Under the pieces are notes generated by a model. The model was not told the DNA's origin, ran no database searches, and saw only the letters and a list, made by a program, of their open reading frames with translations. This document shows, in pieces, positions 170-17,640 of a DNA stretch of 24,000 nt. Within the stretch, counting starts at the first letter, position 1; every line of letters begins with the position of its first letter. The DNA is from Lutispora thermophila DSM 19022 (GTDB lineage Bacteria > Bacillota > Clostridia > Lutisporales > Lutisporaceae), in contig NZ_FQZS01000007.1 of NCBI RefSeq assembly GCF_900142105.1, positions 68,248-92,247 on the forward strand, written 5' to 3'. Made by a program: the position numbers and the translations under genes.

Positions 170-275
170 ATGCGGTACAGAGATGCCGACAAGATTAGAA
201 GTCAATATTGTAGGAATTGGTGTGCTTACATATTGGGCCATTCTATAGTCTTGCGGTATCCGCAAGACTTTTTGC
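170..275 (+). promoter_or_regulatory. pyr leader attenuator: PyrR-binding-loop-like element plus intrinsic terminator
   Basis: GGTACAGAGATGCC at 174-187 resembles the PyrR loop consensus ARUCCAGAGAGGYU as I recall it. A perfect hairpin AGTCTTGCGG-TAT-CCGCAAGACT at 247-269 is followed by TTTT (270-273), all inside the 5' leader of pyrC. Confidence 0.55.
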
Positions 276-364
276 TTGCCATTAGACTCTGAAATAATAC
301 TTCTCATCTTTGTTGCACTATGAAATGACACTTCTCTGCACCGCCCAGTAAGGAGAAATGGACT

Positions 365-3287: not shown

Positions 3288-3288
3288 C

Positions 3289-3987
3289 ATGGGAAAAGAC
3301 GTGATTATTGCCTGCGATTTCAGCAGCACATCAGAAACCCTCAAGTTTCTTGAACAATTCGGATCGATTCGGCCTTATGTGAAAATTGGCATGGAACTAT
3401 ATTATGCCGAGGGACCGACTATCGTTAGGGAGTTGAAAGTACGCGGTCACAAAATATTCCTTGACTTGAAGCTTCATGATATTCCCAATACTGTAAAAAG
3501 AACCATGAGGATACTTTCCTCACTCAATGTTGATATGATAAACCTTCACGCCGCCGGAACAAGCTCCATGATGGAGGCTGCCATGGAAGGAGTGATTAAA
3601 TATGATGGTTCACGTCCATTGGTGATAGCTGTCACCCAGTTGACCAGCATCAGTGAAGAACAGTTGCATAATGAACTTCTTATCAATGAATCTCTCAAAA
3701 ATACTGTTCTTGCCTATGCTGCCAATGCCAAATCCGCCGGACTGGACGGTGTGGTATGCTCCCCCTTGGAATCTCAAATCATTCATGAGAAATGCGGCAA
3801 TAATTTTATCACCGTAACACCGGGCATTCGCTTCCCTGATGGTGACAAAAGCGATCAGGTGAGGGTTACTACACCTGCACAAGCAAAGGAGTTAGGCTCA
3901 GATTACATAGTGGTTGGAAGACCTATAACACAATCTGAAGATCCAGTGTCTGCATACCATAGATGTATAAAAGATTTTCTAGTATAG
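3289..3987 (+). CDS. pyrF: orotidine 5'-phosphate decarboxylase
   Basis: 232 aa with the FLDLKLHDIPNT active-site motif. The ATG lies 2 nt after the pyrD stop. Confidence 0.93.
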   Translation: MGKDVIIACDFSSTSETLKFLEQFGSIRPYVKIGMELYYAEGPTIVRELKVRGHKIFLDLKLHDIPNTVKRTMRILSSLNVDMINLHAAGTSSMMEAAMEGVIKYDGSRPLVIAVTQLTSISEEQLHNELLINESLKNTVLAYAANAKSAGLDGVVCSPLESQIIHEKCGNNFITVTPGIRFPDGDKSDQVRVTTPAQAKELGSDYIVVGRPITQSEDPVSAYHRCIKDFLV

Positions 3988-3999
3988 GAGGCGATGTAA

Positions 4000-4638
4000 A
4001 TGAAAGTAAAAATTGCAAAGGATCTGCTTAAAATTAAAGCTGTATTTCTCAGACCTAATGAACCTTTCATCTGGGCCAGTGGCATAAAAAGCCCTATATA
4101 CTGCGACAACCGTCTTACACTTTCTGATCCTGAAGTGCGAATGGATGTGGAAACAGGCCTTGCAAATATTATAAAAACCCATTATCCCGAAGCTGAAGTT
4201 CTTATGGGTACCAGTACGGCAGGCATTGCCCACGCAGCCATTACGGCACATCTTTTAAATCTTCCCATGGGCTATGTTCGTTCCAGTGCAAAAGATCACG
4301 GACGAAAGAATAAGATTGAAGGTAAACTGATACCCGGTCAGAAGGTTGTGGTCGTAGAAGACCTTATATCCACGGGAGGAAGTGCCATTGAGGTTGTAAA
4401 TGTGCTTAAGGAAGCAGGGGCTGAAATCCTTGGTATCGCAAGCATATTTACCTATGGCATGAAAGAAAGCATGGATAAACTTTCAAAAGCTAATGTAAAA
4501 AACATAAGCCTCACAGACTTTGACACCATTGTTGAGGTAGCAGCAAAGGAAAAATATATTGAGGAAGATGATATAAAGAGGCTTCTCTCATTCAGAGATA
4601 ATCCATCAGATGAAAGTTGGATAGGAGGTATAAAGTAA
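4000..4638 (+). CDS. pyrE: orotate phosphoribosyltransferase
   Basis: 212 aa with the PRPP-binding motif [13 protein letters not shown]. Confidence 0.93.
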
Positions 4639-5552
4639 TGAAACATCTTATAGACATTCTTGATCTTTCAAAAGAAGAAATTGACGAACTCATCTCCGTT
4701 GCTGAAGACATAATAGAAAACCCGGCAAAATATAGTGAAAAGTGCCGCGGAAAGAAACTGGCCACATTGTTTTATGAGCCATCTACCCGTACAAGACTTA
4801 GTTTTGAATCTGCCATGTATGAGCTAGGTGGCAATGTCATAGGCTTTTCTGAGGCCGGCAGCAGTTCCGCAGCTAAAGGCGAAAGCGTTGCAGACACAGC
4901 AAGGACGGTGGAATGCTTTGCAGACATAATAGCCATGAGACATCCCAAGGAAGGAGCTCCCCTGGTAGCTGCTCAAAGTGTTTCTATACCAGTCATCAAT
5001 GCAGGAGATGGCAGCCATAACCATCCTACACAGACCTTGACGGATCTCCTTACAATAAAGCGTGAAAAAGGAAGATTGGACCATCTTACAATTGGATGCT
5101 GTGGAGATCTTAAATTCGGACGTACAGTTCATTCTCTTATCTCTGCCATGTCAAGGTATGATAATGTAGAATTTGTGTTAATCTCTCCTGAAGAACTGAT
5201 GATTCCTGAGCATCTTCGCACTGATGTTCTTATAAAAAACAACATTCCATTTACAGAAACAACCTCATTGGAAGAAGCAATGCCAAAACTTGATATACTG
5301 TACATGACTCGAGTCCAGCGCGAGCGTTTCTTCAATGAAGCTGATTATGTCCGTCTCAAGGACAGCTATATACTTACTCCTGACAAACTTTCAAATGCAA
5401 AAAAAGATCTCTCCATCCTCCATCCACTGCCAAGGGTAAACGAAATTTCGGTGGAAATAGACTCTGATCCACGAGCTTGCTATTTCAAACAAGTTCTTTG
5501 TGGTAAATATATCCGCATGGCACTTATACTTAATCTTTTGGGGGTGAATTAA
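4638..5552 (+). CDS. pyrB: aspartate carbamoyltransferase catalytic subunit
   Basis: Start trimmed to the ATG at 4638 (GGAGG RBS; overlaps the pyrE TAA). Motifs STRTR, HPTQ and HPLPR. Confidence 0.95.
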
Positions 5553-5555
5553 ACA

Positions 5556-5987
5556 ATGATTATAGGAAGCATAGTAAACGGAGTTGTCATAGACCACATT
5601 CCTGCCGGCAGAGGCATGGAACTTTACCGCTATTTGAATCTGGAAGAGCTTCAATGTGAAGTAGCTCTCATAAAAAATGCCTTCAGTGAGAAGCATGGTA
5701 AAAAGGATATTCTGAAAGTCAATGAAGTCATCGACTTAAACTTTGATATACTTGGATATATTGCACCACAGATTACTGTCAATATCATTAAAGACGGTGT
5801 CAGGGTTCAAAAGATCCATCCTCAATTGCCAAACACCATTACAGGAGTAATAAAATGCAAAAACCCTCGCTGCATCGTATCCACAGAACAAGGGTTAAAG
5901 CACGTATTCAAGCTGACAGACAGAGAAAACAGAATTTATCGCTGCATATACTGCGATACAAAAGCAGAACCCCAAAGCTTTTTATAA
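5556..5987 (+). CDS. pyrI: aspartate carbamoyltransferase regulatory subunit
   Basis: 143 aa. C-terminal zinc motif CKNPRC...CIYC. Immediately follows pyrB. Confidence 0.9.
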   Translation: MIIGSIVNGVVIDHIPAGRGMELYRYLNLEELQCEVALIKNAFSEKHGKKDILKVNEVIDLNFDILGYIAPQITVNIIKDGVRVQKIHPQLPNTITGVIKCKNPRCIVSTEQGLKHVFKLTDRENRIYRCIYCDTKAEPQSFL

Positions 5988-6100
5988 ATCAAGAAACATT
6001 AATATAAAAATACATTTACAGCTCTAACCTCAAAGCAATGAATATCGGGGTTTAGTAACAAACAAGACAATCATCCAACCTGCTTGTGACCTGACACATC

Positions 6101-6160
6101 AAAAATGGACACTGGAGCGATACTCAAAACCAGTTATGGTATCGTTGTGTCCATTTTTTG
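6101..6160 (+). terminator. intrinsic terminator closing the pyr operon
   Basis: AAAAATGGACAC (6101-6112) pairs with GTGTCCATTTTT (6147-6158). There is an inner GCGATAC/GTATCG stem and a T-run at the 3' side. Confidence 0.75.
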
Positions 6161-6181
6161 TTAAGCTTAATGTTAAAATAA

Positions 6182-6872
6182 TCATCCAGTCTTTAGTTCA
6201 ATCAGTCTTATAATATACGTGCCAGCCAACAATATTAGACTCAAAGCTGAATAACCAATCAATATGCTCGTGCCCACATCTGTTCCAACATTGCATAGCC
6301 CCGTAAAATTTAAGATATAATTATTCTAGCTAATACCTGTATACCAAATGAATGAATAAATATATCATTTGAAACAAATTTGGACTTCTACTCCATGCGC
6401 TTAAAAATAAGGCCAAAGAAGGGATAAATATGCTCCCTGCCATTATCATAGTAATATCAATATGCTGCCTTAGCAATAGCCCTTTGCAAATCAATGGCAC
6501 ATTGGGCAAAAACACTATAAGGACTCCGCAAATATAATGCGTTAAAATCTACATCCTATTGAAATATGATGTACTCTGAATCACCTCTCTAGTACTATAA
6601 TAAATGTTCCTTGTGTTTATTTCTGATATGATGCTTAAAGGCATTATCCATAAAATTGATATTATGGGGCCCTTCACCGAATCAAATGACAAAAGCAAAT
6701 ATAATCCGATGACTGCTACATACATAAAAAGTATAAAAGCATTGATACTCCGCACCACAAGCCCCAGTTCTGCATATAATAAATCCCTTAGTCTGTATTT
6801 TAGATTTCCAGCAAAAATCCTGCTCAATACATAATTATCTTGTTGTGCCTTTGCCATATTGTTTTTTAACAT
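6182..6872 (-). pseudogene. decayed polytopic membrane protein: one in-frame TAG plus one frameshift
   Basis: ORFs 6549-6872 and 6330-6515 share a frame and are separated only by TAG at 6549-6551; the read-through is ...YFNRM*ILTHYICGVLIVFLPNVPL.... A further hydrophobic piece (GLCNVGTDVGTSILIGYSALSLILLAGTYIIRLIELKTG*, ending 6182) continues in another frame. Confidence 0.4.
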
Positions 6873-6937
6873 ATCACTTCTTACAACTTGCCCATTTCTC
6901 GTTTTTTATAAATTTAAGAAGGCTGCCGCCCAACTAA

Positions 6938-7528
6938 CTATTTATTAGTTGTGCAACAACCTCCACTTCTAAAATTCTTCACCTTTCCAATAATTATCAA
7001 AATACTTAATGCAAGTATCGATACAGATATGCAAAACGAAACCCAGCTCACTCTCAGCCCCATGGCCAGTAGCATAGCACATAATTCTACTGCAAGAATT
7101 TTTCTTGCTCGCTTTTTATATACTTCCTCTTCCATTTTATCCAAGGGCTTGTTGGCATCCTCCACAGGAGCAAGGGCATAGATGATTATTGCTGCAATCA
7201 TTGCTATACATACAATATTAAACCTTGTACAAGGAATAAGTTTTATTGCCAAAAGCACTGACATAGTTAATAATATGGAAAAAAAGTAACATTTTGATTG
7301 TGTCCTTGCATGATAACCTCCTGCAAATGACCTCAACGGAATGTATGCAATCATAAACAGAAGGCTTTGCCAAACCATATTGAACAAAAGGCCTATTGCT
7401 ATTGTTGTAAGGATATTCACAATTATTAATAATCCCTGTTTTAAACCATACTCATATAAGTCTCTGTCTTCAACTTTTATGGCTCCATTGGCAATGAGCC
7501 CATCCGCAATTTTATTAATCAAGTCCAT
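6938..7528 (-). CDS. agrB: AgrB-family accessory gene regulator protein B (AgrD-processing membrane peptidase)
   Basis: 196 aa, polytopic. The stretch IAYIPLRSFAGGYHARTQSKCYFFS carries the catalytic His and Cys of AgrB. Its ATG lies 6 nt after the agrD stop. Confidence 0.88.
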   Translation of the reverse strand: MDLINKIADGLIANGAIKVEDRDLYEYGLKQGLLIIVNILTTIAIGLLFNMVWQSLLFMIAYIPLRSFAGGYHARTQSKCYFFSILLTMSVLLAIKLIPCTRFNIVCIAMIAAIIIYALAPVEDANKPLDKMEEEVYKKRARKILAVELCAMLLAMGLRVSWVSFCISVSILALSILIIIGKVKNFRSGGCCTTNK

Positions 7529-7533
7529 ATCAA

Positions 7534-7677
7534 TCAGAATTTGCGCAAATTCTCTGCACCTTTAGGCAGTTTTGGTTGGTGAATTAAGCATATACATGTT
7601 GTATTTACGTTCATTGTTGTTATAAACAAGGCAAAACTGGCAATCAAACTACTCAACTTTATTAAAGCTTTTTTCAT
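7534..7677 (-). CDS. agrD: AgrD-like autoinducing-peptide precursor (47 aa, absent from the ORF track)
   Basis: Hand translation gives MKKALIKLSSLIASFALFITTMNVNTTCICLIHQPKLPKGAENLRKF*. GGGAGG sits 8 nt upstream of the ATG. It has an amphipathic N-terminus, a Cys-containing pentapeptide, then an HQPKxPK tail like clostridial AgrD (C. perfringens ...CLWFT-HQPEEPK..., from memory). Confidence 0.85.
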   Translation of the reverse strand: MKKALIKLSSLIASFALFITTMNVNTTCICLIHQPKLPKGAENLRKF

Positions 7678-7748
7678 TACCATTACCTCCCATAAATCTT
7701 TTCATTTAGTTTTATATTACATCAAAGATATCATTTAAGCGATTAGAT

Positions 7749-7786
7749 GGTAAAACTTATATATGTTTTTGGCAAAACTTACAGTT
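7749..7786 (-). promoter_or_regulatory. LytTR-type direct-repeat box A, upstream of agrD
   Basis: GGTAAAAC at 7749-7756 and GGCAAAAC at 7771-7778, period 22 bp. It shares a roughly 38-bp consensus with boxes B, C and D. A TAATAT -10 candidate lies downstream on the minus strand. Confidence 0.7.
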
Positions 7787-7792
7787 TTTTTC

Positions 7793-8296
7793 TTAAAAAG
7801 TATTAGCAAATCTTTGATTCTTGGGAAGAAGTTCATTAGCTAATTGTACTGCCTCATTCCAATCTTTAGATGGCGCAGAAATCATCCATCCATCAGCAGA
7901 ACTAAAACTATATACACCTGATTCATTGGGCTCAAATATTTTAATCATAATCTTTTCTAACTTATCTCCAAAATAAGCATGCAGAACTGTATCGCTATTC
8001 TTTAAGCCTGCCATTCTATCTTTATTTATTATCAATGTCATTTTAGTAAAGTCAAATCGTTGGTCTTCTACATCAATAGTGCCTTCAAATGCAATTCCCC
8101 CGTCTTTTGATGGCCTATATGTTCCATTAATTGATATGGTAATGGGTACCACATCTTCCCTATTTACCATCCTGAACTTAAGTCCGTATAAAGTAGTGTT
8201 TATTGATTTGGGAGACATATAATAATAATTACATGCAACATATATTAACAATATAATTACTATCAAAATACTGATTGACTTATCTGTAATTTCCAT
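7793..8296 (-). CDS. hypothetical N-terminally membrane-anchored or secreted protein
   Basis: 167 aa. GGGAGGAG RBS 10 nt upstream. One N-terminal hydrophobic helix (SISILIVIILLIYVA) followed by a soluble domain. No recognisable family. Confidence 0.7.
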   Translation of the reverse strand: MEITDKSISILIVIILLIYVACNYYYMSPKSINTTLYGLKFRMVNREDVVPITISINGTYRPSKDGGIAFEGTIDVEDQRFDFTKMTLIINKDRMAGLKNSDTVLHAYFGDKLEKIMIKIFEPNESGVYSFSSADGWMISAPSKDWNEAVQLANELLPKNQRFANTF

Positions 8297-8839
8297 TATT
8301 ATCTAGCTCCTCCCAAGTATTTCTTGGCCCAGTTCATAATATGAATTATACTTTTTAAATATATCATATCAATGTTACATTGATCATCATTTTGCTTAAC
8401 AGCATGAAAAGAGACTAAAATCTTTTATAGGTCTGCATACACATTGTTCCATATATAATCACTTCAAAACTCTTAAATCTGTGCTTTCTCTATTTATAAG
8501 CAAATTTTGTGTAAAATATCTCCTAACTAACATTATTTTTCGCTTCATTTTAAAATAAGAAAGGCTTACTATAAAAGTGTTTATATTTATCTAGGTAGCC
8601 TTTCTTGAAACCTATTACGGAAAGTACAAATTAAAAATTTATACATGTTTTTCCAATAACCTAACACTTTTTCAGAAAAATATATACAATGTACACATTA
8701 CAGCATCTTAAAAATCAATCAGTATATGTTGAAGCAAATGATAATTAAATTTAGTTTATCTTTATAAAATCCTCATGGAAAACAAGTATCACATATAAAA
8801 ATGTCTCTACCTTAAAAGATATCCTTTAAGGAATTGAAT

Positions 8840-8877
8840 AGCAAAACTTATATGTGTTTCTGGTAAAATTTAAAATT
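8840..8877 (-). promoter_or_regulatory. LytTR-type direct-repeat box B (no ORF immediately downstream)
   Basis: AGCAAAAC at 8840-8847 and GGTAAAAT at 8862-8869, period 22 bp. Its higher-coordinate flank matches the box C flank and its lower-coordinate flank (AAAGATATCNTTTAAG) matches the box A flank. Confidence 0.6.
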
Positions 8878-8943
8878 TTGAATTGATTAGCAGAAATGTC
8901 TTGTAAAATGAAAATTTCCGGTACCTGTTTGGTGAAGGGAGCT

Positions 8944-9027
8944 TTATTTGGCATATTGCTTAAAAAGCTTCTCATCATCAGATTTCAGTATCACAAAATT
9001 TTTCTCTTGAAGCTCCTCTGCTGTTTT
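8944..9027 (-). pseudogene. internally deleted relic of the ankyrin-repeat gene
   Basis: Translates KTAEELQEKNFVILKSDDEK|LFKQYAK*. This matches residues KTTDGLQEENSVILKSDDEK and the last residues IFKQYAK of the intact 153-aa gene, without the ankyrin repeats. A degenerate copy of that gene's terminator and spacer follows (8893-8945). Confidence 0.75.
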
Positions 9028-9073
9028 TTAAAAGGCAACTTTGTCACAAATTCTTCCGCAAACAAAATTTGCA

Positions 9074-9328
9074 TCACATCAGTCGTTCCTCTGGATCACG
9101 AAATGCATCACAAATTTTATCGCATATTCCATCACATATTCCATCACATACTGAAGCAACACAATCACATATCTTATCGCATACTATACCATCACATATT
9201 ACGACTTCACCGGGATCTGGAATACCGGCAACGATAAAGCTGAATTCAAGTCTGTTTTCCATCTCAGTAATGCTCAAATTTTCAACGGAATTCAAATTAA
9301 TTGAATTCAATATACCTTTGTTATCCAT
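9074..9328 (-). CDS. RiPP precursor paralog A3 (Cys-Asp tetrad-repeat peptide), probably frameshifted at its 3' end
   Basis: 84 aa. Same AAGGAGGTGAAATT RBS as A1. The leader differs from A1 at 3 of the first 38 residues. The core has 8 Cys in [I/V]CDx units. The ending RDPEERLM* is unrelated, while the adjacent frame (9028-9078) encodes CDANFVCGRICDKVAF*, homologous to the A2 tail. Confidence 0.8.
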   Translation of the reverse strand: MDNKGILNSINLNSVENLSITEMENRLEFSFIVAGIPDPGEVVICDGIVCDKICDCVASVCDGICDGICDKICDAFRDPEERLM

Positions 9329-9421
9329 AATTTCACCTCCTTTATTTTAATCTGATGCTTAATGTTTGGATTAATTGCTAATTTTATCTTACAATAAAAA
9401 AAGTCCCTAATGGGTTAATAT

Positions 9422-9459
9422 GGTAAAATTTACATATATTTTGGGTAAAATTTAAAGTT
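9422..9459 (-). promoter_or_regulatory. LytTR-type direct-repeat box C, upstream of precursor A3
   Basis: GGTAAAAT at 9422-9429 and 9444-9451, period 22 bp. It lies about 95-130 nt upstream of the A3 ATG. Confidence 0.7.
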
Positions 9460-9485
9460 CTGCTTTGGTTGGAAGGAATGTCTCG

Positions 9486-9524
9486 TAAAATGAAAACTCC
9501 CCTCACCTGTTTGGTGAAGGGAGT
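9486..9524 (-). terminator. intrinsic terminator ending the biosynthetic operon, after the ankyrin gene
   Basis: On the minus strand, ACTCCCTTCACC-aaaca-GGTGAGGGGAGT is followed by TTTTCATTTT, starting right after the TAA at 9526-9528. Confidence 0.8.
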
Positions 9525-9525
9525 T

Positions 9526-9987
9526 TTATTTGGCATATTGCTTAAAAATCTTCTTCAGGTAGGTGTTATCTCCTTCCATTACAAGATCATACACTGACTT
9601 TCCACTGGATGTTATAACATAAGGATCTGCTCCGGCTTCCAGCAATATTTTAGCCATATCGCAATTTCCCATTACCAGCACCATCTCAATAGGATATTGC
9701 CCTTCTGAATCCTGACTGTTTATATCAACTGTTCCACTGGCTAATATCCTCTTAACTAATGCAATGTTGTTCTCCAATACTGCCTGTGTTAACATATCAA
9801 TCGTAAATTCCATATTACTAACCCTTTTCTCATCATCAGATTTAAGAATCACAGAATTCTCTTCCTGAAGCCCGTCTGTTGTCTTTGAATCAGCAGATAA
9901 AACGATGTTGTTGAAGTTCAGTAACATGATCACTGACACAAATACTGCTGCTAAAACCATTGTTGCTCTCGAACCTTTATTTAGCAT
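9526..9987 (-). CDS. signal-anchored or secreted ankyrin-repeat protein
   Basis: 153 aa. N-terminal hydrophobic segment ATMVLAAVFVSVIMLL. Ankyrin-like repeats: NIALVKRILASGTVDINSQDSEGQYPIEMVLVMGNCDMAKILLEAGADP. Confidence 0.8.
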   Translation of the reverse strand: MLNKGSRATMVLAAVFVSVIMLLNFNNIVLSADSKTTDGLQEENSVILKSDDEKRVSNMEFTIDMLTQAVLENNIALVKRILASGTVDINSQDSEGQYPIEMVLVMGNCDMAKILLEAGADPYVITSSGKSVYDLVMEGDNTYLKKIFKQYAK

Positions 9988-10036
9988 ATAATATCTCCTC
10001 CTTATTCTATTTTATTTTTTAACACCCTTAATGATG

Positions 10037-11167
10037 CTATTGAGCACAATTATCAACCTCTTTTTTTCTTATAAAGCGATTATAGAACTCTAAAAACCTA
10101 TTTGTGATAGCTCTAAAAAGAATTATTACTAAATACATATAAAATAAATTCATTAAAAGTCTCACATTAAGTTTAATATTACTGAAATCCCTAAAGTATG
10201 ACACTATGAATTTTACAATCAAAGCACCTTTTTTAATTAAAATTATTGTGAATAAAAAATATAAGAAGTAGTAAATGTTGTTTGCAACTTTACCTATTTT
10301 ATTATTCTCATAATACTGCAAAACATCTCTGAAAAACCAATATCCATCTGTTCTCATGAAAGGATGAAAATTAAAATAAAAAGTATAAAAAAGCATATTT
10401 ATACATATTAGAAAAATGCTGTATTTAGTTACTATATATAAAATAATTAATAAAACCATATATATGCCTTGCGCAAACAATCCTGCAATATTAACCAAAA
10501 TTCTTTGTTTCAAATCAAGTTCATCTATCCCTGATACATTCGTAAACATAACTGGATATATCAAATATACGGAAAAACTGATAGGTCTTAATCCTATGCC
10601 GCAGTAGCTGCACATGTATGAATGTCCAAGTTCATGAAACATGATGCCAATTATAATAATCAATAATAAAGCAAAGAAATCTGATATGTAAAAATTATCT
10701 TCTTTTTGATAGGCTGAAAAAAAACTATTAAAAGGCAATCCTAAAACAGCCACCAGCAGAACAGAGATAGACACAAGTTTAAGCATGGTATTTTCCCTTA
10801 AATTATATAAAAAGCTGTGACCAAAAAGCTTTTCTTGAATACTGCTTGAAAGCACCTGAATTTGAGGATTAAATATTTTGCGTATTATATGCTTAAATTT
10901 TTTATTGAAACTTTCATACTGTCTTTCCTTTAACACTCCAAGATCAATCAATTTGTCAAATATAACCTGACTGTTTTCTATATTTAAAGATGTTAAATGC
11001 CTTAAATACTCTTCTTTATCACCTTTTTCAGGCAGAACGGATATGAGATAAGCCACTTCTTTACTTACCTTATAGCAAGATGTCTTGTTGATTATTAAAT
11101 TCCCATTTTTATAATCCGGCATATATTCATTTTTAAATACATTAACATATTCTGAGCCAGCTCTCAT
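10037..11167 (-). CDS. membrane-embedded zinc metalloprotease, M50/site-2-protease-like (YydH-like), with a cytosolic N-terminal domain
   Basis: 376 aa. HELGH at codons 178-182 (10622-10636) lies in a TM segment. NFHPFMRTDG matches the S2P signature NxxPxxxxDG. Multiple TM helices. The first ~90 aa resemble a PqqD-like winged-helix domain (VSKEVAYLISVL...VIFDKLIDLGVLKE). Confidence 0.75.
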   Translation of the reverse strand: MRAGSEYVNVFKNEYMPDYKNGNLIINKTSCYKVSKEVAYLISVLPEKGDKEEYLRHLTSLNIENSQVIFDKLIDLGVLKERQYESFNKKFKHIIRKIFNPQIQVLSSSIQEKLFGHSFLYNLRENTMLKLVSISVLLVAVLGLPFNSFFSAYQKEDNFYISDFFALLLIIIIGIMFHELGHSYMCSYCGIGLRPISFSVYLIYPVMFTNVSGIDELDLKQRILVNIAGLFAQGIYMVLLIILYIVTKYSIFLICINMLFYTFYFNFHPFMRTDGYWFFRDVLQYYENNKIGKVANNIYYFLYFLFTIILIKKGALIVKFIVSYFRDFSNIKLNVRLLMNLFYMYLVIILFRAITNRFLEFYNRFIRKKEVDNCAQ

Positions 11168-11194
11168 ATTATCACTCGCTTTTGTTTTGCATAA

Positions 11195-12613
11195 TTACAG
11201 ATGAGGAAATAGGAAATTTAAACTATCTATGCGATCATCCTGTTCTCGCTCAGTATATATATATTTGATGGCTTCATAAATTTCATCTTTCCTTGTGCTG
11301 CAATATGGGTTATATATACTTCCATTGTTTTCTCTAGCCTGAACGCCGCATTCTCCGGCACAAAGCAGTGAGATGGAACATTCCAAACACTTATCAAGAT
11401 TAAGCAGATTTCTGTTTAGGTAATCTTCTCTCAATGAGTTAAAATAAACCTCTCCATTTTTCAGGTATCCTATTTTATAATCATCCCTGCCTGCTTCCTC
11501 ATAGCAGCCGTATATGTCTCCATATGGGTCAATGAGAAAGTTATTGGGTATATTTTGCATGCAAAATCTTGTTTTTCTGAATGGTATGCCCCTTTGAATT
11601 TTCATAAGATATGCCAATCCCTCTGCTTTTCTTCTTATGGGATGTCTGATTTTGCTTTTTATATTGATTGATTCTATTGTTGCAGCGGCTTCCATATGTC
11701 CTACAAAAGAACTGTCATCTGTTTGCTTGAAGTGATTGTGCAAAGGATGCAGATAAATATATGCGTATGGATGATTTAAAATTTCTTCCTTTTCAAGAAA
11801 ATCGTACAAGAATGCCAGTTTTTCCAAAGAATTGGCATCAATATTTATTCTTATATTCAACTTTACTTTCCTATCCAGCATTAAATGGATATTCCTTACT
11901 ATTGTATCAAATGTTGGCTTTCCAGGCTCTGAAACTCTACTTGTATCGTGATCTTCTTGGTTGCCGTCTATTGATACTTGTATGAAGTTTATTTGGCCCG
12001 GCAGAGGACCAACCAAATCCAGGTAATGTTCCAATTGAGTACAATTGGATATGGCACCTACATTGATTGAATATTTATTGGAATACTCCAATACCCTTTC
12101 TACCACATCCCTATTCCTTTTTAAAAAAGGTTCTCCTCCATATAAGGTAATGTCCAGGTCTTCTCTTGAAACATCTCTATATAACTTTTCAAAATATATG
12201 CCAAACAATTGATCCACAAATTCTTTCGTCATAACCTTATTTTCTTTTTTTCCTCTAATTGGCTTCTGATAACAGTAATAGCAATTTAGATTACATGCAT
12301 ATGATAGTAGCAACATCAAGTTGCACTCTGAAAAATCATTTTTTAAATTAAACTCATCTATTTTCTTAACAAACTTAACAAACTCTTTCTTTTCTTCTTC
12401 AGGAGTAAGATTTGTTACATGCCCTCTTCTTTGCAGGAATTCAATTTCCACATCGGCAATATCCTGGGAAGATACCACTTTATCCTTATTGCTTAGAAGT
12501 TGGCCCATCTCTTTAGAAACCTCATCTATACATCCATTGAATCCATTAAATAACAGATATGTGTCTTTAAGAGGTATTATATTTAGATATTTGCTAACAT
12601 AATAGTTTTTCAT
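11195..12613 (-). CDS. radical SAM/SPASM-domain peptide maturase
   Basis: 472 aa. CNLNCYYC (CxxxCxxC) at 12272-12295. GGEPF SAM motif. C-terminal auxiliary-cluster cysteines include the CX2CX5CX3C motif CLECSISLLCAGEC and GDIYGC. A ~100-aa N-terminal extension precedes the rSAM core. Strong RBS GAGGAAGGAG. The start lies 20 nt inside the upstream gene. Confidence 0.9.
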   Translation of the reverse strand: MKNYYVSKYLNIIPLKDTYLLFNGFNGCIDEVSKEMGQLLSNKDKVVSSQDIADVEIEFLQRRGHVTNLTPEEEKKEFVKFVKKIDEFNLKNDFSECNLMLLLSYACNLNCYYCYQKPIRGKKENKVMTKEFVDQLFGIYFEKLYRDVSREDLDITLYGGEPFLKRNRDVVERVLEYSNKYSINVGAISNCTQLEHYLDLVGPLPGQINFIQVSIDGNQEDHDTSRVSEPGKPTFDTIVRNIHLMLDRKVKLNIRINIDANSLEKLAFLYDFLEKEEILNHPYAYIYLHPLHNHFKQTDDSSFVGHMEAAATIESINIKSKIRHPIRRKAEGLAYLMKIQRGIPFRKTRFCMQNIPNNFLIDPYGDIYGCYEEAGRDDYKIGYLKNGEVYFNSLREDYLNRNLLNLDKCLECSISLLCAGECGVQARENNGSIYNPYCSTRKDEIYEAIKYIYTEREQDDRIDSLNFLFPHL

Positions 12614-14444
12614 AATAAACTCCTTCCTCTATGAACCTTTTTGTATCCAATGCAGATAAAAAATATCCATAACGGGACACATTGCTTCCGTTAGCATAAA
12701 ATGGATGAGGCACATCATTTTTTATGAAATATTCATGAATATTGCCTTTATGAATCTTATAAAAGTTGCCTTTATAAAAATCGGAGAACCATTTTTCCAA
12801 CTGCGGCTTTTGTTCTAAAAATCTTTCATATACTTCATTTGAAAAGCCCAAGCTTTGTCTGATATCTATGTCAAATTTCTTGGCAGACAGATAAACTGCA
12901 AGCCCTTCATCATAATACTTTATTAACTCATGTGGCATATTCATGCTACGCCATATGCCAGCAGTCATGAAATGTGTTAGCTCATGGGTGATGAGTCTTA
13001 ATATATCTTGCTCATCAATCCTGTCATCAGAGAGCATTATAACACGGTTTGGGTTAAAGCAATTGCATGCATTGAAATTACCTAATAATATGCGCACTAT
13101 CTCAATGTTATCAATATCTTTAAGAAAAACATCTTTGTTAATACCGAACAAAGTTTCAATTTCACCGGATAAATATTCACGGATATCTATTATATCTTTT
13201 TTTTCTATTGGGGTTATTTTTTTACTTGACAAAAATTCTTTATATCTGTAATATGAGTTACTATCCAGATTAGGCATGTCCAAGCTGTAAGTTGAAAATA
13301 TTTTTCTCAACTCTGGAAGGCCTCGGGTTAAATAATCAACATAATTATCGCAGCTTAAAATGATGTTCCTTATATGATCTGAGTGATTTGTGATATTAAT
13401 ATCAGGTTCCTTAATGGATGTTTTTATATTTGCAGATATGGGCTCATTTGTTATTTCACTTTCAATTTTAAAAGCAATAGTTTTTATAAATTCAGTATAT
13501 TCTTTCAAAAGTGATAAATCAATTTCCTCCGCTCCAAATTTACTAAAAGGAATGCCATTGTGAAAATGATTAATCTTAATAAACAGGCTTATGCTTGGTC
13601 TGTTTTCTTTTACCAGAGTTACACCTTCGCATACTCCAAAGGGAATTTCCGCTTTATACTTTTCATCTAACTGATGCATAACTCCTTCAGGGATAAACTT
13701 ATCCAGCTCTACACCATTTTGTTTTGTGCGTATACCGAAGCCATTATTGCTGTTTATCGATGAGTCTATGGCATCCATAGATATAAAATATAGATCCCTA
13801 TCATAAATTATGTTTAAAAACTCATACAATCCTGAATGACTTACCTCTTCATTAAGCGTCAAAAGTCCGTAATACTTATCAGCATAGTTTTCATATTTCA
13901 TCAGATATATGATAAGAGCAGCATTCAATATATTATCTAAGTTCCAATTTGTCAAAGTATCATTTTTTAATACAGGAGACCCATCATAATGGATGACAAG
14001 TTCACCTGAATCATAAGTTTTTATCAAATCATTATGAGCTTTAAAAAACAATGTGACGCCATCCATGCCACTTCTATGACAATGCTCTACCTCAAGTTGA
14101 TCTATACTTTCATACATTCCCGGCAAAAACACTCCAAAATTTCTGCCCACTAAATATTTTGAAGTTCTATGTCCGTACAATTTTGAGTACATATATTCCT
14201 CATCTTGACTATAGTAAAGCCTTCCTCCAGGATGATCGAGATGAGCCTGAAAGCATATCCTATTATTTTTTATTTTTTCTTGGGAATCCTCTCCTAAAAA
14301 AATATTACCGTTCCTTGTAATAAAAAAAGGTATGTTTCCTAATATAGAAGCTAAAATAGCTTTCGTCGTTTCATTCCATTTATGAAAGGGAACAATATGC
14401 AATCTGGACAGTTCTTTAACAATTTTATGATATTCTTGTATCAT
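12594..14444 (-). CDS. two-domain putative leader peptidase: N-terminal co-catalytic (M42/M20-like) aminopeptidase fold plus C-terminal HExxH zincin domain
   Basis: 616 aa. Ordered motifs AHLDHPG (H68/D70), NLDN (D170), NEEVSH (E199/E200), SMDAID and INHFH mirror the M42 metal ligands. HELTH at codons 487-491 (12972-12986) is followed by YDEGLAVY. Overlaps the rSAM gene, implying translational coupling. Confidence 0.6.
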   Translation of the reverse strand: MIQEYHKIVKELSRLHIVPFHKWNETTKAILASILGNIPFFITRNGNIFLGEDSQEKIKNNRICFQAHLDHPGGRLYYSQDEEYMYSKLYGHRTSKYLVGRNFGVFLPGMYESIDQLEVEHCHRSGMDGVTLFFKAHNDLIKTYDSGELVIHYDGSPVLKNDTLTNWNLDNILNAALIIYLMKYENYADKYYGLLTLNEEVSHSGLYEFLNIIYDRDLYFISMDAIDSSINSNNGFGIRTKQNGVELDKFIPEGVMHQLDEKYKAEIPFGVCEGVTLVKENRPSISLFIKINHFHNGIPFSKFGAEEIDLSLLKEYTEFIKTIAFKIESEITNEPISANIKTSIKEPDINITNHSDHIRNIILSCDNYVDYLTRGLPELRKIFSTYSLDMPNLDSNSYYRYKEFLSSKKITPIEKKDIIDIREYLSGEIETLFGINKDVFLKDIDNIEIVRILLGNFNACNCFNPNRVIMLSDDRIDEQDILRLITHELTHFMTAGIWRSMNMPHELIKYYDEGLAVYLSAKKFDIDIRQSLGFSNEVYERFLEQKPQLEKWFSDFYKGNFYKIHKGNIHEYFIKNDVPHPFYANGSNVSRYGYFLSALDTKRFIEEGVYYEKLLC

Positions 14445-14494
14445 AACATTTATCCTTTCTTTCGCTTTAATATCATGTTATTTCCATCATCAGT

Positions 14495-14803
14495 CTACCA
14501 GATGACCTTGTCACAGAATCTTCCGCAAACGAAATTTACATCGCATGGATATATTGTGTCACAAAAAACATCACAAACTTTATCACATATCTTGTCACAG
14601 ATATCCCCACAAATCTTATCGCATACTTTATCACAAATAGGACTGCAAATTACATCACATACACCGGTTGTACACTCAGGGCGGATTATATCTAAAATTG
14701 ATATGTCCATAATCGAATAGACAATTCTTTCTTCAGATTTTTCCAATATTAGATTGTCTTCATTGAACAGGTTAATAGTTCTAATAATATTATTCATAAA
14801 CAT
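14495..14803 (-). CDS. RiPP precursor A2 (13-Cys Cys-Asp tetrad-repeat peptide)
   Basis: 102 aa as tracked. The likely true start is the third codon (ATG at 14797), 7 nt after GGGGG. Cys-free leader ...IRTINLFNEDNLILEKSEERIVYS.... Core CTTGVCDVICSPICDKVCDKICGDICDKICDKVCDVFCDTIYPCDVNFVCGRFCDKVIW. Confidence 0.85.
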   Translation of the reverse strand: MFMNNIIRTINLFNEDNLILEKSEERIVYSIMDISILDIIRPECTTGVCDVICSPICDKVCDKICGDICDKICDKVCDVFCDTIYPCDVNFVCGRFCDKVIW

Positions 14804-14881
14804 TCCCCCAAGTTATATTTTCACATTATTCAATTTGCATAACCTGTCTAATAAACATCCGAAAGAACTAATTGAGGATTA

Positions 14882-14920
14882 CTCAAACTCATCTTTGCCC
14901 CAGCCAAAGATGAGTTTGAG
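14882..14920 (-). other. 15-bp perfect stem-loop between precursor A1 and A2 (partial terminator or RNA stabiliser)
   Basis: CTCAAACTCATCTTT (14882-14896), 9-nt loop, AAAGATGAGTTTGAG (14906-14920). There is no U-tract on either strand. Confidence 0.6.
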
Positions 14921-14954
14921 TATGTAACCTTAATTATTTTGCAAAATCAAATTG

Positions 14955-15188
14955 CTACCAAATTGCATCGCATATTTGTCCACATATTTGATCACATATT
15001 GCATCACATACTGCGGAGATGCAGTCACATATCTTATCACATACAATAGCATCACATATTCTACCATCATAATAATCCGGAACACCAGCAAAGATAAAGC
15101 TGAATTCAAGTCTGTTCTCCATTTCAGTAATACTTAAATTCTCAACTGAATTTAGGTTAATTGAGTTCAATATGCCTTTGTTTTCCAT
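14955..15188 (-). CDS. RiPP precursor A1 (8-Cys Cys-Asp tetrad-repeat peptide)
   Basis: 77 aa. RBS AAGGAGGTGAAATT. Leader MENKGILNSINLNSVENLSITEMENRLEFSFIFAGVPD. Core GRICDAIVCDKICDCISAVCDAICDQICGQICDAIW. Confidence 0.88.
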   Translation of the reverse strand: MENKGILNSINLNSVENLSITEMENRLEFSFIFAGVPDYYDGRICDAIVCDKICDCISAVCDAICDQICGQICDAIW

Positions 15189-15282
15189 AATTTCACCTCC
15201 TTTATTTCTGTTTTACTTCATGCGTTATTTATTGATAGCTATTTTTAGCTTATAATAAAAAAGCCCCCTAATGGGGGAAAGT

Positions 15283-15320
15283 GGTAAAACTTATACACAT
15301 TTTTGGTAAAATTTAAAATT
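15283..15320 (-). promoter_or_regulatory. LytTR-type direct-repeat box D, upstream of the precursor A1/biosynthetic operon
   Basis: GGTAAAAC at 15283-15290 and GGTAAAAT at 15305-15312, period 22 bp. A TATTAT/TATAAG -10 candidate lies at about 15249-15257 on the minus strand. Confidence 0.72.
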
Positions 15321-15375
15321 ATGTTTGTTTAGGAAATATATTTGTAGTAAGGCCTTCAGCTTGGATTTCTTATTT

Positions 15376-16671
15376 CTAAAAACTATGACAAAAATTATAT
15401 AAAAGAACATCTGCATAAAACATAGAGTCTGTATGTTGTATGGTTATCGCTCCATTATATTTGCCAATGGCCTTTTTTACACTCTTTAAACCAAATCCAT
15501 GATTTTCTTTATCTCTATGAGTCGTCTTAAGATCGCTGTTTTCATAGACAAGATTTCCGTCAAAGGGATTTGAGATGCTAATATAAAGAACATTTCTATC
15601 TAGCTTGATAGAAGCTTTAATGGTTTTATCCCTTTCCAATTTTGATACCGCCTCTATAGCATTATCAAACAAATTGCCAAGAATTATGCTCAAATCAAAA
15701 GGCTGGATATCTAATTTCTCAGGCATGTTCAATTCCAAATCCACTTCTATGCCAAGCTTTTTTGCCTCATTTATCTTATAATTCAATATACTATCTACCG
15801 GCATATTGCCGGATTTGATATGATTGTTTGATTCTCCGATTAAATCAAAAATTCTATGTAAATATTCCAAAGCACCTTTATTGTCGTTTTTTTCTATTAG
15901 GACCTGTAAAACTGAGATATGATTTTTTATATCATGTCTGAGAATCTTTATATTCTCATTAGATTGATTAATAATGTCAAGTTGTTTTATATAAGCATTA
16001 TTCTGCTGGTGCAGCAATTCTTTTTCTATTTTTTCGTTATAAGATCTTATCAAAGCATCATATAAATAAAATACAAAAACATTAATAATGAATAATATTG
16101 ATATACTTATCAAAATAAAATACAATTTGTATTGAGCTTCTATAGTTATCAAAATAAAGGTGGAAAAGAGAGTTCCTACAGGTATTAAAATTATTGCAAT
16201 CCAATGCATAGGAGAAATGTTTATATCATTTTTTATCATTTTGAAATTTGATAAAGCAAGCATGATCATATATGAAATTATCTTTGTACTAATTAGTGCA
16301 GCTATTAATTCTACATTGGCATCATCGCTTAATTGATTTAAGTTCATAGATTTTAACCCATACACTGTTAAAGCTTCAACAGACAGCAATATTGCATATA
16401 TGTAAATCGTTGCAATAAGTCTTGACTTCAATGAAGCTGGATAATTAAACGTTAGCAAGAAAAATAGAATAAGATTTGAAATTAAATTAACACCTGGATT
16501 GTTAAACATAATGTAAATAATAGCTATAGATAGATAATAAAGTATATAAGATATGAATTCAAAATTTTTGCTGACTGCATCATTTTCAAAGAAAAAAGTC
16601 ATAAATTTGAAAATTATATAAGTACCAAAGATATTTGACAGAAGATAAATAATATCGTAATTATCAAGCAT
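15376..16671 (-). CDS. AgrC-like (HPK10-type) membrane sensor histidine kinase
   Basis: 431 aa. About 6 N-terminal TM helices. H-box LRHDIKNHISVL, N-box LGNLFDNAIEA, G-box HGFGLKSV. Its start overlaps the response-regulator stop by 8 nt. Confidence 0.88.
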   Translation of the reverse strand: MLDNYDIIYLLSNIFGTYIIFKFMTFFFENDAVSKNFEFISYILYYLSIAIIYIMFNNPGVNLISNLILFFLLTFNYPASLKSRLIATIYIYAILLSVEALTVYGLKSMNLNQLSDDANVELIAALISTKIISYMIMLALSNFKMIKNDINISPMHWIAIILIPVGTLFSTFILITIEAQYKLYFILISISILFIINVFVFYLYDALIRSYNEKIEKELLHQQNNAYIKQLDIINQSNENIKILRHDIKNHISVLQVLIEKNDNKGALEYLHRIFDLIGESNNHIKSGNMPVDSILNYKINEAKKLGIEVDLELNMPEKLDIQPFDLSIILGNLFDNAIEAVSKLERDKTIKASIKLDRNVLYISISNPFDGNLVYENSDLKTTHRDKENHGFGLKSVKKAIGKYNGAITIQHTDSMFYADVLLYNFCHSF

Positions 16672-17395
16672 TGTTATTAACCTCTTTCTGTCTCATCTGC
16701 AAAAGCTTGTCTCTCACAGCCTTTCTGTTATGTTGGCTAATGGGCAGTATCACATTATTGGATATCCTAACTTTATCATATTGCACTTCAACTATGTGAT
16801 CATAATTTACCAGATATGATTTATGAATGGATATGAAAGGCGCTCCTCTAATCTGCCTTTGTATTATTGACAATTTGGAATAATATTCCTCTATGGTATC
16901 TTTCATAATAATGCGGATTTTTTTACCCATACTTTCAAAATATAAAATATTATTTATCGGTATTCTATAAAAACAATGACCCTTTTGATATTCAAAAATA
17001 ATGCCATTATTACGTAAAAGTCTTAAGGCTGTCATAAATACTTTCTGGATTTTCTCATATGTAAGAGGTTTTATTAGGAAATTGAGAGGCCTTATATCGA
17101 AAAGTTCCATGGCATAGCTGTCTTTTCCTGACACATAAACTATATGGGTGATATCATTAGCTATTACTTCTCTTATGAGTTTACCAATTCTTATTCCATT
17201 CATGGTCTTTAGGTCAATATCTAAAAATATTACATCATAATACACTCCTTCATGTAATGACTGGCATAATTTTTCTCCAGAATAGAATGTCTCTACAGAT
17301 ATTTCCTCGCAAAAGGTCTGTCCTATTTCCAATAATACATTTTCCATGTAGGCACATATAGCTTTCTCATCATCACATATAGCTACATTAATCAT
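16664..17395 (-). CDS. LytTR-family response regulator (AgrA-like)
   Basis: Start trimmed to the ATG at 17395 (AAGGAGGTG RBS), giving MINVAICDDEK.... REC domain with DVIFLDIDL. C-terminal LytTR domain ILYFES...ISIHKSYLVNYDHI. Confidence 0.9.
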   Translation of the reverse strand: MINVAICDDEKAICAYMENVLLEIGQTFCEEISVETFYSGEKLCQSLHEGVYYDVIFLDIDLKTMNGIRIGKLIREVIANDITHIVYVSGKDSYAMELFDIRPLNFLIKPLTYEKIQKVFMTALRLLRNNGIIFEYQKGHCFYRIPINNILYFESMGKKIRIIMKDTIEEYYSKLSIIQRQIRGAPFISIHKSYLVNYDHIVEVQYDKVRISNNVILPISQHNRKAVRDKLLQMRQKEVNNNA

Positions 17396-17468
17396 ATAGG
17401 ACACCTCCTTTAAAAGGATATTATAGAAAACTAAACCTTTATTTAACATATTTTATTTAATTTGTATA

Positions 17469-17498
17469 ATTATAGCATAAAACCTGTCCATATCTCAA
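17469..17498 (-). promoter_or_regulatory. sigmaA promoter of the kinase/regulator operon
   Basis: Minus strand TTGAGA (17493-17498), 18-nt spacer, TATAAT (17469-17474). A single TATTTTACC half-site sits just upstream (about 17505-17515). Confidence 0.5.
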
Positions 17499-17640
17499 CT
17501 TGTATTTGGTAAAATAGGGACAAAGTAGGATGATAGTGAAATGCTTCAAGCTAGCAACTCAAATGCAACACTAACAAAAAAACAAGGAGAACATTTTCTT
17601 CATCCCTCTCTGGTTAATTGATCTTGGATAAATTAAGAAG

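Follow-up and report, generated by a model that had tools for sequence, protein, structure and literature searches.

A candidate family of radical-SAM-modified peptides with hydrophobic-Cys-Asp-x repeats in Lutispora thermophila

The genome of Lutispora thermophila DSM 19022 contains short genes whose products are built from a repeated hydrophobic-Cys-Asp-x unit and which lie close to a gene for a radical S-adenosylmethionine (rSAM) enzyme. They are found in a stretch of 24,000 nucleotides of contig NZ_FQZS01000007.1 (positions 68,248 to 92,247), referred to here as the window. There are three of them, A1, A2 and A3; together with a 616-residue protein encoded next to the rSAM (the partner), they carry the NCBI label 'hypothetical protein'. 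The best explanation of the whole, which we regard as evenly poised, is that A1, A2 and A3 are precursors of a small, undescribed family of rSAM-modified RiPPs (peptides that are ribosomally synthesised and modified post-translationally), the hydrophobic-Cys-Asp-x repeat peptides. The parts of this explanation differ in strength. It is very likely that the three peptides are RiPP precursors of this rSAM, and analogy with characterised enzymes makes thioether chemistry on their Cys residues fairly probable. The pattern of the repeats gives Asp about an even claim to be the thioether acceptor. That the rings are strictly adjacent, each Cys-Asp dipeptide being cyclised on itself at the C-alpha or C-beta of the next residue, is a tentative proposal. 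The best reading of the family is as thioether-crosslinked, ranthipeptide-like RiPPs that the membership tests place outside the PapB family.

A1 consists of a Cys-free leader of 43 residues and the core ICDAIVCDKICDCISAVCDAICDQICGQICDAIW, which has 8 Cys, 6 of them as Cys-Asp, and ends in IW. A2, also with a Cys-free leader, has 13 Cys (9 as Cys-Asp) and ends in VIW. Both reading frames lie on the minus strand where a first-pass annotation of the window had placed them, with the same counts of Cys and Cys-Asp; its description of the leaders as Cys-free is borne out in both, and the uninterrupted run that it quoted from A2, ICDKVCDKICGDICDKICDKVCDVFCDT, is exact. Other parts of that description need qualification. 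The cores had been called near-perfect in period 4, which is true of the middle of A2 only: the Cys spacings of A2 are 5, then 4 (eight times), then 6, 6 and 4, and those of A1, with its 5- and 2-residue steps, are 5, 4, 2, 5, 4, 4 and 4. The leader pattern given at that time fits A1 but has two mismatches in A2, and the columns common to both leaders are I-x4-NL-x4-NL-x5-E-x-R-x3-S. An ending in a hydrophobic residue and Trp is indeed found in A1 and A2 (both IW) and is typical of the close clade described below, but it is absent in clade II. The start of A2 is the second ATG, at 14797, both in the NCBI annotation and in an 87%-identical orthologue, P0001. The third precursor, A3, was overlooked in the first-pass annotation and lies outside the span that it covered. 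It has 8 Cys, 7 of them as Cys-Asp, its C-terminal end is replaced by AFRDPEERLM, and its DNA is 81% identical to that of A1 across 247 nt.

Could such repeats be an accident of composition? The Cys-Asp count of the A1 core was matched in 3 of 100,000 shuffles and that of the A2 core in 0 of 100,000; the count of 4-residue spacings was reached in 466 of 100,000 shuffles for A1 and in 0 of 100,000 for A2. A chance or simple-repeat artefact is ruled out by these statistics together with leader conservation, ribosome-binding sites and orthologues. The 12-bp periodicity of the DNA that had been noted earlier was detected by Tandem Repeats Finder in both genes (14570-14638 and 14962-15014), and because the matches reach only 63-75%, the DNA repeats must be old and degenerate. 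Compared with NCBIfam and Pfam, A1, A2 and A3 have no family match even at E = 10.

How widespread are these peptides? A profile made from A1, A3, A2 and P0001 gave 35 matches among 1.84 billion representative proteins, and about 30 of these are genuine small precursors that carry [IVLF]-C-D-x arrays. The precursor family is real but rare: a word-indexed search with A2 returned a single homologue cluster, and the family is visible only by full HMMER profile search. Loci were gathered by genome scan with rSAM alignment and by contig look-ups, and are numbered here; L001 is the contig of the closest relative, L006 is Dethiothermospora halolimnae and L007 is Vecturithrix. A1 orthologues are found in L001, L214, L087, L088 and L089, and A1- and A2-type orthologues with the same neighbours occur in L001, L087, L088, L089/L090 and L214, loci across which rSAM identity falls from 85% to 48%. 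The order of precursor(s), 616-residue partner and rSAM is kept in L001, L087-L090, L211 and L214 (L086 lacks the upstream end), and a membrane protease follows 3' of the rSAM in these loci wherever the contig extends that far. This conserved order upholds the first-pass proposal that A1 and A2 are precursors for the neighbouring rSAM. In the close clade, where the rSAM is at least 48% identical (L001, L086-L090, L211, L214), the partner is directly upstream of the rSAM, and in all loci but L211 there are between one and four precursors whose arrays are of the [IVLF]-C-D-x kind. The leader motif recurs in L001, L087-L090, L211, L214 and L216. The general hallmark of a RiPP locus, a small open reading frame (ORF) beside a maturase whose leader is conserved while its Cys-rich core varies, is thereby seen across genomes.

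The two types of precursor each keep their own irregularities. All A1-type peptides contain CDCVxxVCD, while the A2-type orthologues keep an N-terminal CT[TS][GA]VCD and a C-terminal FCD(K/R)V(I/V)W. A1- and A2-type peptides are found together in five loci (the window, L001, L087, L088 and L214), and this co-occurrence suggests a two-peptide product, which would probably be a secreted antimicrobial or signal.

Beyond the close clade, gene order and cores diverge. The clade II locus L216, where the rSAM is 37% and the partner 24% identical and the gene order is swapped, has three Cys-Asp-array precursors beside the rSAM and its M42-like partner. More distant rSAMs (35-42% identical) are accompanied by peptides that keep the leader motif, LN-x3-GE-x-LTLEKA-x-DRMEFEAL, with different cores. 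The Vecturithrix core has CDSDxCDSDS with Cys every fifth residue, the L048 core has Cys-Asp at variable spacing, and the Elusimicrobia cores are Cys-Asn/Ser/Gly-rich, in loci that lack the M42-like partner and keep the membrane protease. Taken together, the rSAM relatives at 35-49% identity (L007, L009-L021, L048, L211) have a common leader motif and differing cores, some of them Pro-rich. In L006 (4179-7413) a partner-rSAM pair, 52% and 56% identical, stands alone between ligA and gatCAB, and within 6 kb there is neither a precursor nor a membrane protease; either the substrate is encoded at another place or the pair is a relic, and L006 contributes no core to the comparison.

The first-pass annotation had recommended a search for at least five consecutive C-D-x-x units next to rSAM genes. 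A metagenome DNA scan for five consecutive TGYGAY-N6 units gave at least 120 loci, essentially all of them 12-bp microsatellite-like DNA, and a leader, rSAM or partner protein was present in none among the matches listed. The best-looking locus among those listed, L135, lies beside a eukaryote-like membrane-protein gene.

Which enzyme would act on these peptides? The rSAM of the window matches Pfam Radical_SAM and Fer4_12. Its CX3CX2C motif (C107/C111/C114) is invariant in 37 rSAM homologues, as is a seven-Cys SPASM motif formed by C409-x2-C412-x5-C418-x3-C422 with C351, C370 and C438; the SPASM domain model TIGR04085 reaches 44 bits, with a cut-off of 27. Among solved structures, the thioether-forming CteB is the nearest by sequence (E 3e-12). 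CteB is also the best Foldseek match (E about 1e-16, approximately 490 columns) of the AlphaFold2 (AF2) model, which has a predicted local distance difference test score (pLDDT) of 90.7, and is followed by anSME, TigE, ChlB and SuiB. The N-terminal domain of about 95 residues has a beta-strand/helix structure in the model and, given that the alignment with the RiPP recognition element (RRE)-bearing CteB runs over approximately 490 columns, would resemble a leader-binding RRE domain.

The NCBIfam models that match the rSAM best are all maturases of Cys-rich peptides, and it scores below the cut-off of each: 126 bits against 600 for CefB, 'Cys-every-fifth' (NF038107), 125 against 400 for the geopeptide maturase (TIGR04280), 117 against 525 for TIGR04463, 113 against 340 for the PapB family (NF047865; aligned over rSAM residues 99-436), 80 against 425 for the SCIFF maturase (TIGR03974) and, in a partial alignment, 49 against 350 for the CXXX-repeat-target rSAM (TIGR04115). 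Relatives score 114-125 bits against the PapB model, and those from Vecturithrix and Geobacteraceae are likewise below all cut-offs. Because no cut-off is reached even by distant members, the rSAM clade lies outside all curated models.

Where does Asp stand with respect to Cys? Two samples were used, one of 36 precursors with 404 array Cys and one of 18 precursors from seven loci with 154 core Asp. In the larger sample Asp directly follows 327 of the 404 array Cys (81%), a hydrophobic residue (I, V, L or F) is found at -1 in 82% and at +3 in 88%, and successive Cys are 4 residues apart in 71% of steps and 5 apart in 22%; the x position of the unit is unconstrained. Homologues lacking conserved Asp had earlier been named as an argument against Asp as the acceptor, and within the family Asp proves to be conserved. 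Of the core Asp in the smaller sample, 139 of 154 (90%) come directly after Cys; Asp is at +1 of Cys in 72%, and at -3 or +5 in about 45-50%. When the step is 5, the added residue falls after x and leaves hydrophobic-Cys-Asp intact. Exactly one Asp is present in 285 of 343 Cys-Cys intervals, and an Asp that is not at +1 is at +2 or +3 within its unit (CGD, CPQD). The last Cys is directly followed by Asp in 26 of 33 arrays. Cys-Asp reaches 100% in six representative precursors whose leaders are longer and divergent; one of these, P0073, comes from the clade II locus L216.

Asp keeps its place at +1 despite changes in spacing and also after the last Cys, and therefore the conserved element is one Cys with its own downstream Asp. 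The statistics favour a single Cys-Asp pair per unit as the modified element rather than a fixed D-x-x-C or C-x4-D ring. Such rings had been taken in the first-pass annotation to be implied by the register of the repeat; this does not follow, since Asp tracks its own Cys (+1 in 72%, against about 45-50% at -3 or +5) and holds +1 at spacing 5. Reading the ring topology from the termini of the arrays was also tried and gives no decision, since the orphan counts are equal (two Cys and one Asp in A1 of L001) under the adjacent and the D-x-x-C models.

How might the mature product be made? The Cys-free leader (I-x4-NL-x4-NL...E-x-R), which is common to substrates of the CteB-like clade, would presumably dock on the N-terminal domain of the rSAM. 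By means of the 5'-deoxyadenosyl radical and auxiliary Fe-S clusters, the enzyme would then convert the thiol of each Cys to a thioether, the acceptor being the single Asp of the same unit and usually the residue right after the Cys. The thioether step is proposed by analogy with PapB, CteB and NxxcB and on the basis of the enzyme class, the acceptor step from the sequence statistics. Each unit of the mature core would thus contribute a small ring containing sulfur, and the rings would follow one another in a chain, in place of macrocycles that are long or overlap. A PapB-like attack on the Asp C-beta would give seven-membered rings, while an enteropeptin-like attack on C-alpha would give six-membered thiomorpholinone rings. 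The leader would be removed by the fused HExxH endopeptidase/M42 aminopeptidase, by the S2P-like membrane protease, or by both; the obvious inference for the partner is endo-cleavage plus trimming. The conserved boxes described below suggest that the operon is turned on by the flanking Agr-type quorum-sensing system.

Several observations count against this proposal. No rSAM of the clade comes near the cut-off of any curated model of a thioether maturase, and there is no Pfam match to an RRE domain in rSAM residues 1-100, the support for such a domain being only the fold alignment to CteB. The hydrophobic residue at +3 (88%) is conserved better than Asp (81%) and could equally be the acceptor, and individual Asp can be replaced by G, S, T, V or A while Cys is kept. 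Since rSAM relatives at 35-49% identity (L211, Elusimicrobia) act on cores that have no regular Asp, the enzyme fold does not demand it. PapB processes the adjacent CX0D arrangement incompletely (PMC9413430), and rings of small size may therefore be unfavourable. The island shows no exporter gene in any part.

Different linkages can be drawn from the same repeats. Thioethers might join neighbouring units, either from Asp(i+1) to the next Cys, in the orientation of NxxcB, which would give head-to-tail four-residue D-x-x-C rings, or, with the polarity of PapB, from Cys(i) to the Asp one unit further on, as an overlapping C-x4-D ladder. Spacing 4 is dominant (71%), so that position +3 of most Asp is a Cys and position +5 of most Cys is an Asp, and in A1-type peptides whose first Cys precedes Ala there is an Asp at -4 of that Cys. 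There is also enzymatic precedent, as NxxcB forms a beta-thioether in N-x-x-C and tolerates Asp as the acceptor (PMC9389541), and PapB is efficient at n = 1-5 and poor at n = 0 (PMC9413430). However, Asp stays by its upstream Cys when the spacing is 5, 6 or 2 and is less often found at -3 or +5 than at +1. Moreover, the Asp after the last Cys (26 of 33 arrays) would be orphaned in the D-x-x-C arrangement, and the last Cys itself in the C-x4-D arrangement. If the chemistry is PapB-like, D-x-x-C rings face a further difficulty, because PapB requires a carboxylate C-terminal to the Cys (PMC12373016). Rings between units are thus unlikely. It is improbable that Cys is linked instead to the hydrophobic I, V or F of position +3 or -1, through the C-alpha, C-beta or C-gamma of that residue in the manner of sactipeptides or thermocellin, with Asp serving merely for solubility, enzyme recognition or turn formation. 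The hydrophobic positions (82% at -1, 88% at +3) are slightly better conserved than Asp, D-x-hydrophobic always comes after the last Cys, and the residues that substitute for Asp (G, S, T, P, N) are turn formers. CteB, the closest solved enzyme, joins Cys to Thr and not to Asp. Against this, 90% of core Asp come right after Cys and some clade II peptides are 100% Cys-Asp, which implies selection stronger than solubility would need. L048 keeps Cys-Asp, and Elusimicrobia keep Cys-Asp/Cys-Asn, at other spacings, and both Asp and Asn have a carbonyl-activated beta-carbon, the type of site attacked by PapB and NxxcB.

Does the core act as a single molecule at all? PQQ and mycofactocin are excised from peptides after the action of an rSAM/SPASM enzyme, and by the same logic the three peptidase domains could cut the array of modified units into many copies of a small sulfur-containing molecule. 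One modifying enzyme stands here against three metallopeptidase domains, an aminopeptidase among them; the arrays are free to vary in number of units (5-18), there is no constraint on position x, and an exporter gene is lacking. Yet irregularities are conserved among orthologues (CDCVxxVCD in A1-type, CTTGVCD and ...CGRFCDKVIW in A2-type peptides) and two distinct peptide types co-occur, which together indicate that the whole core acts as one molecule, and a multi-core precursor is very improbable. Slighter still is the prospect, already raised in the first-pass annotation, that the un-crosslinked core is a dense Cys/Asp metal- or iron-sulfur-binding peptide and that the rSAM makes another change or acts elsewhere. 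The A1 and A2 cores do combine a high density of Cys and Asp with a strongly acidic net charge. Metallothionein motifs are C-x-C, CC or C-x-x-C, unlike a Cys at every fourth residue with a hydrophobic neighbour, and the leader, the translationally coupled protease-rSAM pair and the membrane protease are hallmarks of a processed RiPP. Quorum-sensing control would also suit a secreted product. The candidate thioether-crosslinked RiPP, with one Cys-Asp pair per unit, remains the reading that we prefer.

The genes around the precursors, all on the minus strand (Table 1), run in the order LytTR regulator, AgrC-like kinase, A1, hairpin, A2, partner, rSAM, S2P-like protease, ankyrin protein, A3, a 167-residue ORF, AgrD and AgrB, so that Agr-type quorum-sensing genes are found on both flanks of the precursor/rSAM cluster.

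Table 1. Features of the peptide island, in window coordinates.
Feature	Position	Strand	Length	Basis or remarks
LytTR response regulator	16664-17449	(-)		Pfam LytTR, Response_reg
AgrC-like histidine kinase	15376-16671	(-)		Pfam HATPase_c_5; weak AgrC similarity
Promoter element before A1	15258-15322	(-)	65 nt	repeat family; two TAA(A/G)TTTTACC boxes
Precursor A1	14955-15188	(-)	77 aa	strong AGGAGG ribosome-binding site; WP_073025356
Hairpin between A1 and A2	14881-14921	(-)	18 bp	perfect; RNA folding
Precursor A2	14495-14803	(-)	102 aa (ORF)	probable start 14797, giving 100 aa
Partner, M42/TET-type + HExxH...E	12594-14444	(-)	616 aa	invariant residues, AF2, Foldseek
Radical-SAM/SPASM maturase	11195-12613	(-)	472 aa	Pfam, NCBIfam, fold match to CteB
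S2P/M50-like intramembrane metalloprotease	10037-11167	(-)	376 aa	HELGH, N-x2-P-x4-DG motifs
Ankyrin-repeat protein	9526-9987	(-)	153 aa	Pfam ankyrin families
Precursor A3	9074-9328	(-)	84 aa	A1 paralogue
A2-tail remnant, out of frame	9028-9078	(-)		DNA match to A2; translation CDANFVCGRICDKVAF, then stop
AgrD-like autoinducer precursor	7534-7683	(-)		TIGR04223
AgrB-like processing protein	6938-7528	(-)		AgrB-like model, below cut-off

The partner gene overlaps the rSAM gene by 20 nt, and this overlap indicates that the two are translationally coupled. The partner has only 8 homologue clusters, all adjoining this rSAM clade and one of them named 'cellulase M'. Invariant in the 8 homologues are H68-x-D70, D170, E199-E200, D224, H295 and H487-E-x-x-H491...E513. 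The first of these residues supply the dinuclear-metal ligand pattern of M42 peptidases, H-x-D, D, E-E, D/E, H, an assignment made by pattern and not by superposition. The top 50 Foldseek matches of the AF2 model (pLDDT 82) are all M42/TET aminopeptidases, with E down to 3e-12, and include PhTET1 and TmPep1050 at E about 1e-11. Because of the invariant pattern and the M42-only fold matches, the partner is predicted to be an M42 aminopeptidase domain fused to a gluzincin-like HExxH...E domain. The window protein itself has no Pfam match, and its homologues in L089 and L216 have weak ones.

The membrane protease carries HELGH and NFHPFMRTDG (the N-x2-P-x4-DG motif). Against the cut-off of 27.2 for Pfam Peptidase_M50, the complete protein scores 26.5 bits and its C-terminal 246 residues alone score 28.1 bits, and the NCBIfam daptide HExxH protease model gives 62.6 bits against a cut-off of 300. 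The membrane protease adjoins the rSAM in L001, L086-L090, L211, L212 and the Elusimicrobia loci. The ankyrin protein has an N-terminal hydrophobic segment, is conserved after the protease in L001 and L087, and is possibly an immunity or accessory protein. Two ORFs have no family match in any library: one of 167 residues with an N-terminal hydrophobic segment (7793-8296), between A3 and the agr genes, and a membrane-like one of 107 residues (6549-6872), beyond the agr genes. The GC content is 0.27-0.35 in the peptide island (6000-17500) and 0.39-0.44 in the adjacent pyrimidine-biosynthesis operon (1-6000). The island may have been acquired horizontally.

How would the precursors be regulated? 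The components of an Agr-type quorum-sensing system, AgrD, AgrB, an AgrC-like kinase and a LytTR regulator, are all present. AgrD scores 47.9 bits with TIGR04223 (cut-off 19), and the kinase and regulator score 87 bits with HATPase_c_5 and 57.5 bits with LytTR in Pfam. AgrB is below its cut-off in the window, while its L001 orthologue has a Pfam AgrB match, and an agrD/agrB pair likewise lies 3' of the cluster in L001. There (L001 6934-10900) AgrD/AgrB are followed by genes for a LanB-like lanthipeptide dehydratase and an Rce1-like protease, which form a second, unrelated RiPP locus.

The 65-nt element upstream of A1 recurs before A3 (9397-9461), before agrD (7724-7788) and, in degenerate form, at 8815-8879. 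On the minus strand it has two direct TAA(A/G)TTTTACC boxes in a 22-nt register, and two direct boxes in this register are the layout expected for LytTR/AgrA sites. The four elements look like putative binding sites of the LytTR regulator encoded in the island, and because their boxes match the LytTR layout, quorum-sensing control of the precursors is likely. The intergenic region between A1 and A2 folds with a z-score of -4.5, and none of 200 shuffles was as stable. Its hairpin is without a clear U tract and may serve processing, attenuation or stability, and in this way fix the proportion of A1 to A2 and the enzyme.

The number of repeat units differs between relatives. A1 orthologues differ by whole units, with 8 Cys in the window, 10 in L001 and 11 in L214, and across the family (the same 36 precursors) the number of Cys ranges from 5 to 18. 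Downstream of A3, the remnant listed in Table 1 is the tail of an A2 copy, with an 86% DNA match to 14505-14546. A fragment of the ankyrin gene, 63 nt long, lies at 8969-9031 and matches 9827-9889, and a second copy of the promoter at 8808-8972 matches 9390-9554. Judged from these sequences, the region 8788-9554 is a segmental-duplication scar with a deletion between duplicated repeat genes, and A3 is the product of recombination between a copy of A1 and a copy of A2 that carries a deletion. The earlier suggestion that the arrays expand or contract by recombination fits both the variable unit number and this recombinant A3.

Has such a system been described before? The literature search, made in a searchable library and extending neither to supplementary tables nor to papers behind subscriptions, found no paper linking Lutispora with radical SAM, none printing cores such as ICDKICD or VCDQVCD, and none in which M42, aminopeptidase, RiPP and radical SAM come together; an earlier genome-mining dataset may already list the family. 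That an rSAM maturase occurs together with a protein in which an M42 aminopeptidase is fused to an HExxH domain had not been noticed before. Protease-resistant antibiotics have come from sactipeptides and ranthipeptides, as have peptide-stapling enzymes such as PapB. The present family would offer a natural substrate in which the donor Cys stands beside the likely acceptor Asp, in up to 18 repeats, and from it one could learn whether a reaction between adjacent residues, which is poor for PapB in vitro, is employed in nature. Its enzyme might write many small rings into one peptide. If the rings are strictly adjacent, the products would be strings of 8-18 six- or seven-membered S,N-heterocycles (thiomorpholinone or thiazepanone) with two-residue spacers, a backbone architecture that is not known from natural products, and A1 and A2 would act together. 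The leader motif is common to a wider, uncurated clade (Elusimicrobia, Vecturithrix, Desulfobacterota), which provides a test set for acceptor choice. If the product consists of ordinary Cys-Asp macrocycles, the result would be a new ranthipeptide subfamily, useful but unsurprising.

Which known systems come closest? Like the window, the freyrasin system PapA/PapB of Paenibacillus polymyxa has a leader-bearing precursor with repeated Cys...Asp and an rSAM/SPASM maturase with two auxiliary clusters. PapB forms a thioether from Cys to the Asp C-beta and accepts Cys-Xn-Asp with n = 0-6, that is, i+1 to i+7 (PMC9413430). Freyrasin has C-x3-D, whereas the units in the window have period 4, with Asp at +1 and every Cys preceded by a hydrophobic residue; position +4 is occupied by the next Cys, and the substrate motif of the PapB family is absent. 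Freyrasin has 6 units and the Cys-Asp family up to 18, and the accessory genes (the fused M42/HExxH protein, S2P-like protease and ankyrin protein) differ as well.

Natural precedents for joining two neighbouring residues in a small backbone heterocycle are found in other rSAM systems. In enteropeptins an rSAM enzyme makes a thiomorpholine ring between neighbouring Cys and N-methylornithine (PMC12973295), and TqqB joins adjacent Thr-Gln (PMC9389541). By analogy, Asp at +1 suggests an adjacent-residue ring. These systems make a single ring with N-methylornithine or Gln as the acceptor, using enzymes of other families that were not retrieved as close homologues, whereas 8-18 rings in a row are proposed for the Cys-Asp family. 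The streptococcal NxxcA/NxxcB pair is similar in its carbonyl-activated beta-carbon acceptor, and D-x-x-C spacing is present in the period-4 stretches of the window peptides. It differs in that its acceptor is N-terminal to the Cys, in a single motif, while Asp in the Cys-Asp family tracks the upstream Cys.

The rSAM of the window has in common with CteB (PDB 5WGG/5WHY) an rSAM barrel, a SPASM domain and possibly an RRE-like N-terminal domain, at about 16% identity. CefB, the geopeptide maturase, TIGR04463 and TIGR04115 are rSAM/SPASM maturases that act on peptides with periodic Cys and have yet to be characterised. In SCIFF precursors six Cys are spread over about 45 residues, and a Cys-Asp repeat is not known in them. 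CefA/CefB substrates have a Cys at every fifth residue, whereas in the window family 71% of steps are of 4 residues and 22% of 5. The substrate of the window is literally a C-x-x-x repeat, yet the enzyme does not belong to the CXXX-repeat family. The overall logic of the system is familiar and its motif striking, and its failure of the PapB-family membership tests sets the family apart.

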